64,000 nt of DNA from Octopus vulgaris (Eukaryota): positions 54,622,001 to 54,686,000 of the forward strand of contig OX597828.1 of the NCBI GenBank assembly GCA_951406725.2, written 5' to 3'. Under the pieces are notes generated by a model. The model saw only the letters and a list, made by a program, of their open reading frames with translations, made no database searches and was not told the origin of the DNA. Below are positions 8,258-63,877 of the stretch, in pieces. The translations under genes were made by a program, and so were the position numbers. The stretch's first letter is position 1. Each line of letters starts with the position of its first letter.

Positions 8258-8680
8258 TAAATTAGAGACAAAACCACTATTATGAAAATCAAACAAAGAA
8301 AGACTTAATCCAATACATAAATTAATTTATATTATTTAGAAATTTAACAATTATTAACATCCACTACGATCGTTTCATGTCTTCTTTTCATCACATCTTT
8401 GAGTAGTAGACATTCTTCAGGTGGTTTCAAATCTAAAATATAATCAATATTTTTAAGATATAAATAATCTATATAATCTAAAATAATAATTTACTTATAA
8501 TAAACTCTATTATTATATATGATTATACCGAAATCGACTATAATGTTAAATATTAACTTTAATTTATATATATATATATATATATCATAATAATAATAAT
8601 AATAATAATATGAGGGAATATTATTCCAGACTTACAGGGAAAAATTCACTAAATCAAATTTCACAAAATATAACATATAT
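8258..8680 (-). mobile_element. Penelope-like element terminal fragments (family P1)
   Basis: Homologous to 31080-31325 (AATAGTGGTTTTGTCTCTAAT, TTTTCCCTGTAA); carries a hammerhead; flanked by (TA)n. Confidence 0.65.
8361..8424 (-). ncRNA. Minimal type I hammerhead ribozyme
   Basis: Minus strand: CCAC-CUGAAGA-AUGUCU..AGACAU-GAAA-CGAUCG-UA-GUGG; intact core, stems I-III, GUA cleavage triplet. Confidence 0.85.
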
Positions 8681-16774: not shown

Positions 16775-17500
16775 TGATTCTAAATGTTTTTTGTATTTAT
16801 TTGCCTGCTGAAACACTGTGTTTGCGAATGTTAGACCAAACTGTTGACAAAAGGACAGCAATCCTAAACCGCTTTCATTCACCCCTTTTCCATGTTCCAT
16901 GTTTTCCTGTTACTTTTGACCACACTGTGTGTTTGTTACCCATTCTGGCATTAAAATCGCCTATCAGTATGATTTTGTCATGGTATGGAATTTTACTGAC
17001 AACTGTCTGCAATTCGGAGTAGATGTTGTGTTCCTGTTCGCCTGCCGATAAGTTAGGTGCATACGCACTGATAATGTGTATAGATGAGGGTTTATCTATT
17101 GGTATACAGAATGTACCGAGACGCTCATCAACAGCTTGAGGGATGGATGGCAATTTTCGAAGTAGAGTCGATTTAATGGCAAAGCCAGCACAATGAATTC
17201 TTAGTTCATTCGCCGGTTTTCCATTCAAAAAAAAAAAAAAAAAGGGAAAAAAGAAAATAAAAGAAAAGAAAAAGAAAAAGGAAAAGAAAAATGTACAACC
17301 ACTTCCAACTTCTAATTCACCAGTGTCCGCAAGCCTGATTTCGCTTAGAAGAGCAATATCAACGTTATAGGAGAGAATAACCTTCGCAATTATTGCCGTT
17401 TTTCGATCTAGGCTGTCTTTGCTGTTTTGTAAAGTTCTTACGATCAAAAATTAGCATGCTTCTTTTATTCCTTTCATCTTAAATTCGACTGCAATAGACT
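16775..17500 (-). mobile_element. RTE-clade LINE apurinic endonuclease fragment (degenerate)
   Basis: YNVDIALLSEIR, GFAIK, IISAYAPN, IILIGDFNARMG, then frameshifted NESGLGLLSFC..NTVFQ; interrupted by an A-rich tract at about 17227-17290. Confidence 0.85.
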
Positions 17501-17554: not shown

Positions 17555-18795
<1,241 letters not shown>

Positions 18796-28190: not shown

Positions 28191-28530
28191 AGTAAGAAAA
28201 TGGAGAAATACATCTAAATCAAATATCAATTACCAGATAATACTCAATCACATACTTTATTAAACCACCACATAAGAGACTGTAGGGTTAAATATAAAAA
28301 GCAGAACAAATCAGTGTACATAAAGGAATGTACATAAAAAAGTGTACATAAAAGAGTAATGTTGTATAATAATTAGAATATATATAAAAAAGAATATAAA
28401 TACAAGTAAATATAAATATAAGTATGAATTAGATCTTACAGCTGTTTCGGCCATGTCGATAATTTTGTCTCATTTTACCAATATTAGCCCTTTATGGTTG
28501 GTCAATATATAGATATAAATGAGACATTAA
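28189..28530 (-). mobile_element. PLE-terminal fragment with the 3' half of a hammerhead
   Basis: Minus strand GGCC-GAAA-CAGCUG-UA-AGAUCU at about 28431-28452; abuts (TA)n. Confidence 0.45.
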
Positions 28531-28539
28531 CAAAAAATC

Positions 28540-28730
28540 ACAAGAAATTAAAAACGGAAAATATGCACACTTACATAGTTTTAATATAATTTTTAATATA
28601 TCCGCCGGTTTCGCTATCGCTATTCATGACATGTTTGCATATGTATTTTCTTAAGAAGAAATTTTGTCCATGTTGTGTGGTGATGATATTTACGAGTGAA
28701 TGACTTCACAAGTAGAAAAATAAGGTGGGG
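28540..28730 (-). mobile_element. PLE-like terminal repeat family P2 (A3-U8 hammerhead, decayed copy at 28599-28631)
   Basis: Homologous to 50740-50932. Confidence 0.6.
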
Positions 28731-30052
28731 GGAGAGGACTCGGAAGATTCACATCATGAATGTTCCGAGTTTCTTGGTTCTGGTGAGGTGACTCGGAACA
28801 TTCACGATGCGAATATTCCGAGTCCTCTCTCCCACCCCCTGTTCGCGAGCGCGCATTTTTTTTCATATTCGTTTAGGCAAGATGTTTTACACATATTACA
28901 CTATTTTCTCTTCTTTTTTTTGCTCGGGTCAAACGCTTTAGTTTAACCGTAAAAAAAACACTCGACCTAGGCGCCACGTAGTGGGACTGAACTCGGAACC
29001 ATGTGGTTGGAAAGCAAGGTTCTTAACCACTCAGCCATAGCTGCATATATGCACACGCATTCATTCACACGTACCTTCATACATACATACATACATACAT
29101 ACATACATACATACATACATACATACATACATACATACATACATTACATACATACATACATACATTAAAACCCTTTGCATACATATATATGACATTGATA
29201 ACACTAGAGACACAATGAATAAGAAAAGCAATGGGGTAATATGTGTGGAGTCCCCGCGCGCACACACTTAACAGTTACAGATATGGCATTTCGTTTCATT
29301 CGTGCTGTTGTACTGACAAACTTCACCGAGGGCTGACCTGTAAGAAAACACAACAGGCTGACCTCGAGGTTATTTCTTAACACCCGTCGTGTTGTAGTTT
29401 ATGAAAATCACTCGTTCTTTCTCGTATTCTCTTCCTCTTAGATGTGTTTAAAACTACACAAAACGAGAAAACAACCGCGCTTCACTGCTTAAACATAGAA
29501 AAGATTAAATGGGTTTCGTAGCGGAACTAAATAGCAGGCTCTTCAATGAGATGACACCATTTCTTCCGATGATTATAGACGACACTCAACGAAATTGTCC
29601 AGGTGGTTCACGTCAGTGTTTTCCTTGTTTCGTCACCTTCACATAAACCCTCAAAATTACCCGATCCCTGCTTGCCGTCGGCGGTTTGCGTTGATGTGAA
29701 TTCATATCAAATTCTTTCATTTCCCGTTAAATCTAATTTTAGTTGCTTATTTCTTTTATTGGAGTATTCTGAGGAAAATTTTCGTTTGCTTTCAACCATT
29801 TGTAAATTTGTAAATTTTTCTATTTTCAATGGATTATTTTCAAATTTTCTATACAGATGCAGTTTTGTTTGCTGATGACGAATATCGCAGTCAATTTTTT
29901 TGAAAAATTAATAATTAACAAGACAGTAGCATTTAAAGTTATATATTTTTTAACCAATGAAATTAGTCATGTCTTTAAAAGCGGAAGTCGAAACTTTGCT
30001 GCCATGGCAATTCATTGAAAATGAAGAAGGGAAGGCGAGATTTTATTGTTTT

Positions 30053-30719: not shown

Positions 30720-31318
30720 TATTTAGCTATTTTATTTATTTATAGTTGCCTAGACGTTTTTATGTGTATGTATAGGGATATATATATAGGTGTGTGATTT
30801 AGTGTATGTAGTTAGATATGGTTATATATAATTAGTTATATGTGTATGGGTGTATATATAGTTTATTATTATATTATTATTATTTTTCGTTTTGTTTTAT
30901 ATTTTATATTTTATATTTTATATTTTATATTTAATTGTTGATAGGTTTATTTTAGTTTATATATTGTTTATATATTGATTATATATGGATTATATATAGG
31001 TTATATATGGATTATATATTTATATTTTTCATTAATACTTTAATTATTTTAAAATTATTATTTTTATATTTTAAAATATTGATATTTTAGATTGGAAGTC
31101 CACCTGAAGATTGTCGATCAAGACAAGAAACAATTGTAGTGGCGGTTTTTTTGACTATTTATTAAAATTTTATGTATTGATTAAGTCTTTCGTTGTTTGT
31201 TTTGCAAAATAGTGGTTTTGTCTCTAATAATATTTTATAATATTTTACTATAAAATTGGATTTAATCCTAAATCTGATTTTTTTCCCTGTAAATTTGGAT
31301 TTATTCCCTAATATTTAT

Positions 31319-33425: not shown

Positions 33426-33462
33426 GTGCATATGAAGGCGGCGAGCTAGCATAATAGTTATG

Positions 33463-34012
33463 GCACCTGAAAAAATGTTGTGTGTATGGTGGGACCGGGA
33501 AAGGATTATCCATTACGAATTGCTTGAATGGAACCAAACGGTCAACGCGGAAGTCTATGTTCAACAGAAGGAACGTCTCAACACGGCTATTCAAGAGAAA
33601 GGACCTAATCGGCAGCATGGGGCTCTTCTGCTGCACGACAACGCCCGCCCCCATATCGCCAATATGACCAAGGAAGCCATTCAAACGCATGGCTGGGAAG
33701 TGCTGCCACATCCGGCGTACACTCCTGATTTGGTGTCAACGGATTTCCACCTCTTACGATCTGTTTCAAATGCAATGCGCGGAGTTTCGTTCAATACTGA
33801 TACAGAATTGAGAGCTTGGCTGGATCAATTTTCCGAGTCGAAATTGGGTGATTTCTACCAACGTGGTATTGAAAATCTTGTTGAACGTTGGGAAGAAGTT
33901 GTAAACAACAAGGGTGAATACATTATTGATTAATTAGTTGTTATTTTTTCATCAAACCTTTCAAAAACTTTAAATTTAAAAAAACGGCAGGAACTTACTT
34001 GCCAACCTAATA
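33463..34012 (+). mobile_element. mariner (DD34D) transposon 3' half with right TIR
   Basis: MLCVWWD..LLHDNARPH..HPAYTPDLVSTDFHL (34 residues between the 2nd and 3rd Asp), stop at 33933; TIR ..GAACTTACTTGCCAACCTAA then TA. Confidence 0.9.
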
Positions 34013-49129: not shown

Positions 49130-50706
49130 CACTGCGTGTCGGACTCTGTTTTTTCGAAATAACAGTATTTATTCGTTCGAATCCAGATATTTTTTCACTG
49201 AATGATGGCAACATCTGCCTGCGTATACTGCCGTAGAATAAATTGGATTCGCGCAGATTTAAACAAACGGCGGTCATTTTCGTGAAACACCAACAATTTT
49301 ACCGTCCTAAATTATTAGGCATGTGCCCAATAAAAGTATTATTATGGATGAAAAACGTGATTTAACATGAAATGAGAAGTCCACCATCATCTCAGTGCTT
49401 GGATAAACAAAAACGATATTGGAAATATCAAAGATCCAGGGAAGAGATCATCGAACTGTGAAGAAATTTGTGGAGTCTTCTGCTGTCCGTTCGAGGGATG
49501 ACATGGGTAAATAGAGAGTTGTTTCCAGGCGTACCTTGTCACGTATAACGAGGAAAGTTGCGAAGAAGACGTGTCTGACTAGTCGAGAAGTGTTTAAACG
49601 TTGTGGTAGGGAAGACACTTTGAAATCTTCTAGTTGTCGGCTCCTGAAGCAGGTAGCCAAGAACGTAAAACCTGTTACAGGGCCCCCTCAGAAGGCTGTT
49701 CATAAACAAAATAGAGTCAAATGGGCAGAAACAACATGAAGATAGCTTTTTCAAAAGTCCTCTTTACTAACGAATGCCGTCCTACTGTAGACGGACCAGA
49801 TGGATGGAATAAAGGATGGGTTACAATTTGTAGAAATCGTCCTCATCGTTTGAGACGCCAAAAAGGGGAGGCGGAGTCATGATTTGGGCTGACATCAATG
49901 GGAGACAAGTTGGTTGGTCCTTTGAAAGTTCCAGACGGAATTAAGATGTCATCTAATGCCTATGTTGCCATTTTGGAAAACAATTTTATACCATGGTTGA
50001 AGAAGCAGAAAGTTTCATTAAAGAGAACGCTGGTATTCATGCAAAATAATGCGCCCTCTCAGGCAGGTAAGAAATCTCTGGAATACCTACAGTAATTAGG
50101 CTTCTCTGAACACCGTTTGATGAAGTGACCAGCGTATTCACCCGACTTAAACCCGATTGAAAATTTATGGAATGTTCTGAAGAGGAAGATATATCAAGAT
50201 GACCGGCAGTTTTGAACGAAAGATGCGCTCTGGGAAGCTATTTTGGATGCTTCTGAGTGTTACACCAGATGAAATAGTTACCGTGACAAATTCTATCGAA
50301 AAGCGCGTCAGGGACGTTCTCTCATGTTGAGGGTCATACATTTATCATTAAGAACTTTATGACGTCATATTTCTTGTATTATTTCCATTCAAACATATTA
50401 CTATGCTCATTATAAAGTCCGTTATGATTATAGTTGTTAAAAATTAATTGTCGCATTAAATAAATGTTTGTTTTTGCATAATTAGCATTGTTATTAGACC
50501 TATCTAATAATTTGAGACGATAAAAATTATGCCCGTTAACAAAAACGGCCGTTGTTTCTCTACGTATGGCTGGATCAGATTTATTATGGCACAGTACGTG
50601 CAGATGGGTGTAATCATCAAGCAGTGGGAAAATATCTGGATTCGAACGAATAAATATTGTGTTATTTCGAAAAAAACAGAGCTGCCTAATAATTTGATAG
50701 GCATTG
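49130..50706 (+). mobile_element. Tc1-family transposon, near full length, degenerate transposase, long TIRs
   Basis: KVLFTNECRPTVDGPDG, GVMIWA, FMQNNAPS, PAYSPDLNPIENLW; ~200-bp imperfect TIRs (49144-49200 vs 50622-50681 clearest). Confidence 0.9.
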
Positions 50707-50739
50707 TGTGTGTGTGTGTGTGTGCGTGTGTGTGTAATA

Positions 50740-50932
50740 AAAGAAGAAAAATGTGCACAGTTTACATAGTTTTAATATATTTTATAAGTAAAATAGTATT
50801 GTTTGTCGACCGGTTTCGCTTTCGCTAATCATGACATCGAAATTATTATTTCGTATTTTCTGAAGAAGATTTTAGGCCATGTTGTGTATGGGGGTTTTGT
50901 GAATGAATCAACAAGTAGAAAAATATAGAGGG
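50740..50932 (-). mobile_element. PLE-like terminal repeat family P2
   Basis: Homologous to 28540-28730; contains the variant hammerhead. Confidence 0.6.
50804..50836 (-). ncRNA. Minimal hammerhead-like ribozyme with A3-U8 core variant
   Basis: UGUC-AUGAUUA-GC(GAAA)GC-GAAA-CCGG-UC-GACA. Confidence 0.6.
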
Positions 50933-51765
50933 AGGTAATTGGTGATCGTTATTATTCGGGACAGAGGAGGTAGTTGCTCATTTCTGGGGGTGATGATAAA
51001 TAAATATACAAAAACTGAAGTAGTGAGATGAAATATTTACAATGATGGGTAAGTGAACATGAATTAAAATATATACTGAGAACAAAGTTGGTTATGCGTT
51101 CATATTTAGGCGTGTTCTGTATTTTTCAATAAATAAATTTTCTTTATTTAAACGCTCTTGTACAGAAATTGTTTCTTTGCAGCGGTAGATGGAGGAAACT
51201 GTGATGGTTGATTGTATATTACCTGCACATCTCTCTGTGTTAGCTCAAAAGAATATGTCTGTACTGTGGGAAAACAGATCTGTTCCTTATGAAGTGTTGT
51301 TCTCTGCCTAACTACCATACTTTTCTGTTCACCAAAGGAATGGAAGTAAATTGGGGTACTATGACCTCTTGGCTGAAACAGCTCTAAGATACTATTCTAC
51401 TTCCTATGCTCCACGTTATGTATTTTAATAATTACTGGTATTTTTATATTTTTGATTATATATGTAAAGCATATGTTATACATGTATGTATATTGTTATA
51501 ATGTTTTTTTAAATAAATAAATAGACATAATATAATATCTAAAAGTTTATGAATACCACCTCTTGATCCCCTCCATTTTCTTACTGCTGTATAAATTAAG
51601 GGTAAAACAATTTTTTACCCTCACCCATTTATTACATTCAGTAGTGTAATTGCAATGCAATGAAATAGCACTTGTGTATTAATAATTGGGTATTCTACCA
51701 GCAGTATATTGGATAGATATTATCCCTTAGTTGGTTGGATTCACAACCTCTAACTCTCTTGGAAT

Positions 51766-62549: not shown

Positions 62550-63813
62550 TAGTTTTATTTTTATTTTTATAGCGTGCTTTCACTTCACTACCGAGCGCAG
62601 CTCTGTGTGCCTTAGGTATGTGCTGTGATTTGTTGTGATGCTCTGATGGTTATTGTATGGAAAGTGTTCTGCGTAGGATGTGTGCAGTGCCTAGTAGTGC
62701 AATTTTCTGTATGTTATATGTGTTTGTAAGTCCTGGTGTTTTTGTTATGTATTTGTCTGAATATTTTTTTATCATGCCTAATGCACCTACTAAGATAGGA
62801 ATTGTTTCTGTTTTCAGATTCCACATTCTAGTTACCTCTATTTCCAGGTCTTTGTATTTTGAGAGTTTCTCCATTTCTTTTAGAGACACGTTGTCATCTG
62901 CCGGTACTGATACATCAATTAGAAAGCATTTTTTTTCTTCATGGTCTCTGACAACTATATCTGGTCTGTTGGCCTTAATTTCTCTATCTGTGTGTATCGG
63001 CATATCCCAGAGTATGGTTGCTTTCTCGTTTTCTGTGACCTTTTCTGGTGTGTGCCTATACCATCTTTTTTCTGTTGTTATTCCATAATGTTGGCATAGC
63101 TTCCAATGTATGTAGGTTCCAACTCTGTCATGTCTGTGAATATATTCATTCTTAGCCAGGACTGGGCAGCTAGAGATAATATGATTTATTGTTTCGTGTC
63201 CATCTCCACATATTCTGCAGTTACTTGTAATATTTCTTTTCATTACATGTTTTTGGTAATTTCTGGTGGGGAGGCTTTGGTCTTGTGCTGCAATTAAAAA
63301 TCCCTCTGTTTCTGCTTTGAGTCCTGAGCTTCTCAACCATTGCTGGGATTTTTCTTTGTCTATTTCTTTTGCGTTTAGTTTAGTCCAGTATTTACCATGA
63401 AGGGGCTTTTCTTGCCATCGTTTTATCATGGTTCGTTGCTGTTCTATTTTTAGTTTGGATTTCATTTTTTTTATAGCTTTTGTTGTTTCTTCATCTTCTT
63501 CTTCTTCATGTTTATTAGGTGGTATGATTTCTTGTTTGTATTTGTCAGCTTCCTTAAATACTGAGAACAGTTTTTTGTTTTGCTCGTGTTTTGCCGCTAT
63601 CTGGATCAGTTTTCCTTCCTTCTGAAGTAGATATTTTTGCAGTCCTATGGTGGTTATTTTATAGTAGTTTTCCAGCTGTATAAGGCCTCTACCACCTTCT
63701 ATACGTTGTATATATAGTCTTTCTATGTCAGATTTTGGGTGATGCATCCTAGATCCTGTCATTATTTTTCTTGTTTTCCTGTCTATTTTGGTCAGTTCAT
63801 TTCGTGTCCAGTT
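62547..63813 (-). mobile_element. R4/Dong-type non-LTR retrotransposon, 5'-truncated, inserted in (TAA)n
   Basis: Intact frame plus ~100-bp 3' UTR; (TAA)n on both sides. Confidence 0.9.
62650..63762 (-). CDS. C-terminal part of an RLE-type retrotransposon protein (post-RT region, CCHC knuckle, PD-(D/E)XK endonuclease)
   Basis: ERLYIQRIEGGRGL; CRICGDGHETINHIISSC; RHD; RPDIVV..LIDVSVP..EKLSKY; frame stays open upstream to about 63813; not a host gene. Confidence 0.85.
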   Translation of the reverse strand: MTGSRMHHPKSDIERLYIQRIEGGRGLIQLENYYKITTIGLQKYLLQKEGKLIQIAAKHEQNKKLFSVFKEADKYKQEIIPPNKHEEEEDEETTKAIKKMKSKLKIEQQRTMIKRWQEKPLHGKYWTKLNAKEIDKEKSQQWLRSSGLKAETEGFLIAAQDQSLPTRNYQKHVMKRNITSNCRICGDGHETINHIISSCPVLAKNEYIHRHDRVGTYIHWKLCQHYGITTEKRWYRHTPEKVTENEKATILWDMPIHTDREIKANRPDIVVRDHEEKKCFLIDVSVPADDNVSLKEMEKLSKYKDLEIEVTRMWNLKTETIPILVGALGMIKKYSDKYITKTPGLTNTYNIQKIALLGTAHILRRTLSIQ

Positions 63814-63830
63814 ATTATTATTATTATTTC

Positions 63831-63877
<47 letters not shown>

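Follow-up and report, generated by a model that had tools for sequence, protein, structure and literature searches.

Is the small hammerhead-like motif near position 50,800 one damaged copy of an ordinary ribozyme, or does it belong to a natural family in which the core pair between positions 3 and 8 has been exchanged from C-G to A-U? Among the tertiary contacts that hold the active hammerhead fold, the 3-8 pair is the key one, and the natural 3-8 pairs known so far are C-G and U-A. A high-copy A-U family would be a natural test of how far a purine at position 3 is tolerated by the core of so small a scaffold, and it would show that surveys based on sequence descriptors overlook whole families.

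Results

Anatomy of the minus-strand motif

The window, that is, the whole stretch of 64,000 nucleotides analysed here, is animal DNA rich in repeats and microsatellites with about 36% GC. Read directly from 50836 to 50804, its minus strand gives UGUC AUGAUUA GC GAAA GC GAAA CCGG UC GACA. In hammerhead numbering, A3 falls at 50832, U7 at 50828, U8 at 50827 and A9 at 50826, whereas G12 to A15.1 occupy 50817-50814, U16.1 is at 50809 and C17 at 50808. The motif, the repeat that contains it and the related loci in the window are as follows.

50804..50836, minus strand: type I minimal hammerhead motif with an A3/U8 core, 33 nt (sequence, descriptor scan, fold)
50833..50836, minus strand: 5' strand of stem I, UGUC, with its partner at 50807-50804, 4 bp (sequence; pair probabilities 0.50-0.93 in the 33-mer)
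50826..50832, minus strand: core box A3 U4 G5 A6 U7 U8 A9, with C3 and G8 replaced (sequence; family majority)
50818..50825, minus strand: stem II of 2 bp (G10.1-C11.1 and C-G) with a GAAA loop and no nucleotide added after A9 (pair probability 0.82)
50809..50817, minus strand: G12-A13-A14-A15.1 box and the palindrome ACCGGU (50814-50809), which is predicted to form stem III between two molecules (self-duplex -8.3 kcal/mol)
50804..50808, minus strand: C17 (50808) and the 3' strand of stem I, GACA, with the predicted cut between 50808 and 50807 (hammerhead numbering, by analogy)
50737..50932, minus strand: body of the dispersed repeat (copy 1), common with copy 2 (71% over 197 columns; self-comparison of the window)
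50908..50992, minus strand: second conserved block of the A3/U8 family, with a depth peak at 50912-50950 and a short direct repeat about 35 nt apart (contig depth; probable end near 50992)
28546..28722, minus strand: copy 2 of the repeat, decayed; its motif at 28599-28631 has A3/U8 and lacks U16.1 and C17 (sequence, alignment)
31100..31142, plus strand: canonical C3-G8 minimal hammerhead of another repeat family, used as an internal control (descriptor scan)
8361..8424, minus strand: second copy of the canonical C3-G8 family, with a different stem III palindrome (descriptor scan, self-comparison)

The strict core box of the hammerhead, C3-U4-G5-A6-N7-G8-A9, is not matched, because A3 and U8 stand in the places of C3 and G8; U4, G5, A6 and A9 are kept. 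All the other landmarks, namely G12-A13-A14, A15.1-U16.1, the NUH site (GUC), G10.1-C11.1 and the 4-bp stem I, are present in copy 1 and in register. Positions 3 and 8 are complementary in both copies in the window and in the family majority, and would form the tertiary pair. The three helices are all predicted: the centroid structure of the monomer contains stems I and II, and stem III would form when two copies pair. Every hammerhead element save C3 and G8 is in place, as originally described for this strand.

Such an arrangement is rare by chance. Our full descriptor asked for NUGANNA with a Watson-Crick 3-8 pair, a stem II of at least 2 bp, GAAA, a palindromic stem III with at least 4 inner nucleotides, UH and a stem I of at least 4 bp. 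It matched three times in the window, at the A3/U8 motif and at two canonical C3-G8 motifs (+31104-31138 and -8420-8365), against a mean of 0.017 matches in 60 block-wise dinucleotide shuffles (0.083 when the inner-length rule was dropped). With a looser descriptor, six matches were found on the two strands of the window, three of them with a Watson-Crick 3-8 pair, a 4-bp stem I and a 6-nt palindrome. The stability of the monomer is unremarkable (z 0.63), with 145 of 200 shuffles folding equally well. At gathering level, the Rfam hammerhead models found nothing in the whole window, where they missed the two canonical C3-G8 motifs too, and no hammerhead match was obtained at E<=10 over 50700-51050; six weak and unrelated Rfam matches at E<=10 were set aside as chance. 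As a control, we used a 22-letter core pattern that left positions 3, 7 and 8 free (N). It matched 13 metagenome and 6 prokaryote contigs and no viral contig; outside the pattern none of these 19 is similar to the repeat, and none can be completed to the full fold, so we regard them as chance matches.

Two copies of the repeat in the window

The 3' end of the repeat in copy 1 lies about 70 nt beyond the predicted cut, adjoining a (CA)n tract. The original prediction had also pointed to a diverged copy at 28599-28631 with A3/U8 and a different N7. Both features were borne out, 28 of the 33 motif positions being identical to copy 1, but this copy supports the prediction less than was implied, as its cut site is gone: without U16.1 and C17, and with a changed loop II, it cannot be a working hammerhead. 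Identity between the two copies is higher in the motif (28/33) than in the flanks (103/163), with p=0.016, or p=0.13 if gap columns are left out. A search of the window that allowed up to 10 mismatches over the 33 nt of the motif found no third copy. The two copies are solo, 22 kb apart and not in tandem at either locus. A Pfam search at E<=0.01 on 41 ORFs of at least 45 aa near the two copies, a set that excludes most microsatellite frames and most downstream ORFs, gave no match (0/41) and hence neither an RT nor a GIY-YIG domain; the short ORFs overlapping the repeat likewise have no Pfam match and are not regarded as genes.

Some neighbouring features were observed along the way. Directly upstream of copy 2, at 28728-28833, lies a 43-bp inverted repeat (91% complementary, 20-nt gap) built of imperfect units of about 53 bp. 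On the minus strand at 50870-50859, about 25 nt upstream of the motif, a pyrimidine run ending in CAG resembles a splice acceptor, and copy 2 differs there. The intron of the D. virilis Penelope ends at helix I (PMC4209133).

State of the family at positions 3 and 8

Words of the repeat are shared by 23 sequencing runs from five differently labelled organisms, and four of these runs (X1, X3, X16 and X10) were aligned on 50760-50970 at a likeness to copy 1 of at least 80%. The three DNA runs, X1, X3 and X16, which come from organisms A, B and C and from three studies, gave 673, 903 and 748 contigs on the repeat, most of them less than 95% alike; X1, possibly the source of the window, does not count as an independent run. 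In these runs the motif had 8.6-13.9 times the summed depth of the neighbouring flanks, with a second peak at 50912-50950; as contigs were recruited by their likeness to copy 1, depth and variant shares are biased, and summed contig depth is not taken as copy number. The family consensus runs on beyond 50964, and the second conserved block, 50908-50992, is possibly a promoter or a terminal element.

Among the variants listed, those inside the motif affect only the CpG bases 50808, 50811 and 50818 (1.8-13.3%). For the 36 further variants, the tally of places per kind of change was used. In X3, all the places at 5% or more for A>C (1), T>G (2), A>G (5) and T>A (3) fall outside the motif, so C3, U3, G8 and C8 each stay below 5% by depth; two T>C places and one A>T place are unaccounted for in that tally. 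The A>C places unaccounted for number one in X1 and two in X16, and the T>G places three and two, so that the A3/U8 case in these two runs depends on the best-supported variants being those listed. A partly independent line of evidence comes from the unaligned loose ends of upstream-anchored contigs (16, 21 and 23 contigs), whose consensus reads AUGAUUA in all three DNA runs; with median lengths of 15-17 nt, these ends extend as far as positions 3 and 8 in less than half of the contigs.

These data show an old dispersed repeat family, found in three differently labelled organisms, in which A3/U8 predominates; the swap is not the decay of one copy. The natural A3-U8 family that had been predicted is borne out in this respect: a CUGANGA consensus with these copies as outliers, the outcome named beforehand as contrary, is not what we found, and C3 and G8 are each below 5% in X3. 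Taken jointly, descent from a hammerhead and a family-wide A3/U8 state appear very likely to us.

The family is not uniform. The loose ends at 50800 and 50803 give two different consensuses downstream of the motif, which points to subfamilies with differences beyond the motif. Some loose ends have A10.1, and U11.1 is found at 6-9%, which hints that the 10.1-11.1 pair may also occur as A-U; these are per-site shares without linkage, and U11.1 is also a CpG change. The guessed-RNA run X10 gave seven contigs, none with aligned cover over 50808-50847, and is uninformative on expression. Three of its single-contig loose ends reach position 8, one reading AUGAUUA, one GUGAUUA and one having C7 and G8. 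This last contig, with its loose end at 50802, shares stem II and the downstream flank, is decayed, has a depth of 4.45 and has position 3 outside the letters displayed; it may be a hint of a canonical sister subfamily.

Predicted dimer

Two 33-mers are predicted to co-fold as a double hammerhead with stem III formed between the ACCGGU palindromes, at -14.9 kcal/mol. With its own flanks, copy 1 is predicted to favour an inactive fold, 2.1 kcal/mol more stable than the hammerhead dimer, because of a private base at 50838; at this position 96.5-98.8% of the family depth differs from copy 1. With the family-majority base there, the hammerhead dimer becomes the minimum-energy structure (gap 0.0, -16.5 kcal/mol), as it also is in a C3/G8 version. 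Two competitors are predicted for A3. One is pairing of A3 with U16.1 in the monomer, for which P is 0.47 when the flank carries the majority base; the other is UCAUGA, a further palindrome, located in the 5' arm, whose extended duplex would reach -8.8 kcal/mol versus -8.3 kcal/mol for stem III. The stem II of the A3/U8 RNA has only 2 bp, and no loop-loop contact is evident.

In the hammerhead, G12 is the general base and the 2'-OH of residue 8 the general acid (PMC6155905). Since these roles do not need the base of G8, an A3-U8 pair could in principle work. The geometry that had been proposed, a dimer through the palindromic stem III, agrees with the fold predicted for two copies carrying the majority flank base.

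Discussion

Comparison with known hammerheads

Przybilski and Hammann reportedly found in 2007 that all four Watson-Crick 3-8 pairs are cleavage-competent, with a preference for a pyrimidine at position 3 in one ribozyme. The original prediction had relied on compensatory swaps partly rescuing activity. This holds with a limit, as C3G/G8C was the only swap to restore activity when all double mutants of one type III hammerhead were scanned (PMC9901934). Ribozymes with covarying 3-8 positions were active in vitro according to Perreault et al. (2011; PMC3088659), a paper that shares with our case natural 3-8 covariation, natural stems II of two base pairs and weak stems III; its examples, in the accessible part, are scattered and all U3-A8, whereas here A3-U8 is the majority of a high-copy family.

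The closest likeness is to the min-HHRs of Penelope-like elements (PLEs) described by Cervera and De la Pena (2014; PMC4209133), which have the same type I topology, a 4-bp helix I, a palindromic helix III that implies cleavage as a dimer, G10.1-C11.1, mostly solo dispersed copies and AT-rich flanks, and whose 3-8 pair is changed on both sides to U3-A8 in about 1,300 S. mansoni motifs. There are also differences. Among the 56 motifs of their Figure S3, 53 have C3-G8, two U3-A8, one U3-G8 and none A3, whereas our motif has A3-U8, with a purine at position 3; the shortest helix II in that figure has 3 bp and most are longer, against 2 bp here; the nucleotide after A9, missing here, is missing in 2 of the 56; and no PLE ORF is linked to the motif here. 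The small PLE hammerheads of Lunse, Weinberg and Breaker (RNA Biol 14:1499) are similar in their diminished palindromic stem III and dimer cleavage, as recounted in a review (PMC6765202). Non-LTR animal retrozymes (PMC7229834; bioRxiv 10.64898/2026.07.22.740005) are likewise short AT-rich non-coding repeats with a type I hammerhead and a similar unit length, but in the accessible parts of these sources they are defined by tandem units with mostly canonical hammerheads, whereas the A3/U8 copies in the window are solo and minimal.

We found no natural A3-U8 family in the literature, although the collection of Lunse et al., the largest for small PLE hammerheads, could contain one. None is mentioned in the accessible parts of PMC6765202, PMC3884650, PMC7229834, PMC10085705, PMC11014351, PMC13282606 or bioRxiv 10.64898/2026.07.22.740005. 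Motif strings gave one unrelated partial match in the supplement of PMC8557442 (Naiad), where line-wrapped FASTA can hide matches, and none in that of PMC13282606. Descriptors based on CUGANGA, such as those given in the accessible part of PMC8557442, would indeed miss the A3-U8 motif, as had been anticipated. Natural 3-8 covariation in the form of U3-A8 was already known in 2011 and 2014.

Interpretation and alternatives

The explanation that fits best is a type I minimal hammerhead with A3/U8 as its family majority, likely in a Penelope-like terminal repeat and predicted to be cut weakly at GUC upon dimerisation through ACCGGU; for this reading as a whole, we judge the chances of being right and of being wrong about equal. 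The tertiary Watson-Crick pair would be made by A3 and U8 instead of C3 and G8, with the 2'-OH of residue 8 still serving as the general acid and G12 as the general base. An active master element descended from a C3-G8 form would have acquired the swap, the carrier being a Penelope-like element. Cleavage after GUC, weak and limited to pairs of copies joined by their ACCGGU palindromes, may have trimmed tandem transcripts while the family spread. That such dimer cleavage was biologically useful we judge slightly more likely than not. Most present-day copies, copy 2 included, are probably decayed relics, and probably copy 1 is too.

A Penelope-type carrier is probable by analogy, and because the flanking ORFs have no Pfam match, this origin is inferred from the architecture. 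The layout shared with PLE hammerheads comprises solo copies, AT-rich flanks, a palindromic helix III and a motif near the 3' end. Compared with what characterises a PLE pLTR, the minimal type I motif, the palindromic helix III and the dispersed high-copy repeat are all found; an adjacent RT and GIY-YIG ORF is found at neither copy, and most published min-HHRs are also solo. The PLE consensus CUGANGAH, with its additional nucleotide between A9 and 10.1, and an enlarged helix II are not matched: here G10.1 comes immediately after A9, and helix II has 2 bp. Given the departure from the strict CUGANGA box and the lack of ORF linkage, the motif is not filed as a proven member.

Among the alternatives, the one that deserves most thought is a vestigial hammerhead, possible in our view but not favoured, in which A3-U8 nearly inactivated a motif of C3-G8 descent in a spreading master element and the motif has stayed uniform by descent or was kept for protein binding or RNA pairing. 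The rescue of only G3-C8 in the scan cited above (PMC9901934) would agree with this, as would the Naiad PLEs, which reach high copy numbers without canonical hammerheads (PMC8557442), the poor cleavage of min-HHRs even with C3-G8 (PMC4209133) and the predicted misfolds specific to A3. Yet both changes are transversions and together give exact complementarity again, the motif is the centre of conservation, with flanks that split into at least two downstream types, and all the remaining catalytic positions are retained. It is improbable that the same ribozyme sits in a different carrier, a non-autonomous element of about 250 bp (a retrozyme-like monomer, a SINE or another small repeat) and not the tail of an autonomous PLE. 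Both window copies are solo and not in tandem, retrozyme hammerheads are canonical with longer helices, and solo minimal motifs are typical of truncated PLEs (PMC4209133); a 2026 preprint moreover derives animal retrozymes from PLEs (bioRxiv 10.64898/2026.07.22.740005). What such a carrier would account for is the absence of an ORF adjoining either copy, a unit of about 255 bp that falls within the 170-400 nt of animal retrozymes (PMC7229834), and a second conserved block joined to the motif across variable spacers.

The two remaining alternatives find little room. A canonical CUGANGA family, of which the A3-U8 copies were a minority favoured by the recruitment of contigs, is very improbable: recruitment did demand at least 80% likeness to copy 1, and the X10 contig, in which position 3 is not displayed, does have C7 and G8 together with an unchanged stem II, but C3 and G8 are each under 5% in X3, the two window copies are only 71% alike and both A3/U8, the loose-end consensuses read AUGAUUA in 3/3 DNA runs, and no large group of contigs among the loose ends listed is clipped at 50826. 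A chance look-alike, that is, a conserved block of a repeat unrelated to hammerheads, seems hardly credible. The silence of the Rfam hammerhead models at E<=10 and the monomer z of 0.63 would suit it, but Rfam at gathering level passes over the two canonical motifs as well, and neither the shuffle rate of 0.017 nor the failure of all 19 chance core matches to complete the fold is what a look-alike leads one to expect.

Returning to the A3-U8 hammerhead in a Penelope-like repeat, a stronger form of it can be put forward tentatively, and we rather doubt it: an active lineage would have fixed A3-U8, a 3-8 pair for which we know of no natural family in print, in a 33-nt hammerhead whose stem II has 2 bp, and kept it by selection through several rounds of amplification, with a C3-G8 sister beside it. 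A3 would then hold the ribozyme back, as its pairing with U16.1 in the monomer would be given up only upon dimerisation. If such a selected lineage were real, animal hammerhead counts, and claims of Penelope clades without hammerheads, would be partly artefacts of CUGANGA descriptors. The gain is modest: natural 3-8 covariation is published, swaps made in the laboratory have been the subject of studies, and the copies seem to be old and, for the most part, decayed. What goes beyond the first reading is that, in three organisms, an old repeat family has A3/U8 as its majority state.

Other hammerhead families and mobile-element remains in the window

The two copies of the canonical C3-G8 family are 71.5% alike over 246 columns, with different palindromes in stem III and stems II of different length. 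A third hammerhead-like family has left relics at about 28430-28520 (minus strand) and about 51340-51402 (plus strand), which match each other at 82% over 34 bp; both are no more than about 600 bp away from a copy with A3-U8. They retain GAAA, a palindrome of 6 nt and a UA site (with one base changed in the second copy), and the 5' core box is degenerate. Remains of a non-LTR retrotransposon were observed at 62650-63831 on the minus strand, where a 393-aa frame, a distant control ORF, has a zf-RVT match at E 6e-6, just under the cut-off. A fragment related to this frame lies at 17932-18279 (plus strand), and 16875-17450 (minus strand) looks by eye like an endonuclease fragment. Judged by eye from the translations, 33436-33933 and about 49300-50340, both on the plus strand, appear to be relics of Tc1/mariner-like transposases.
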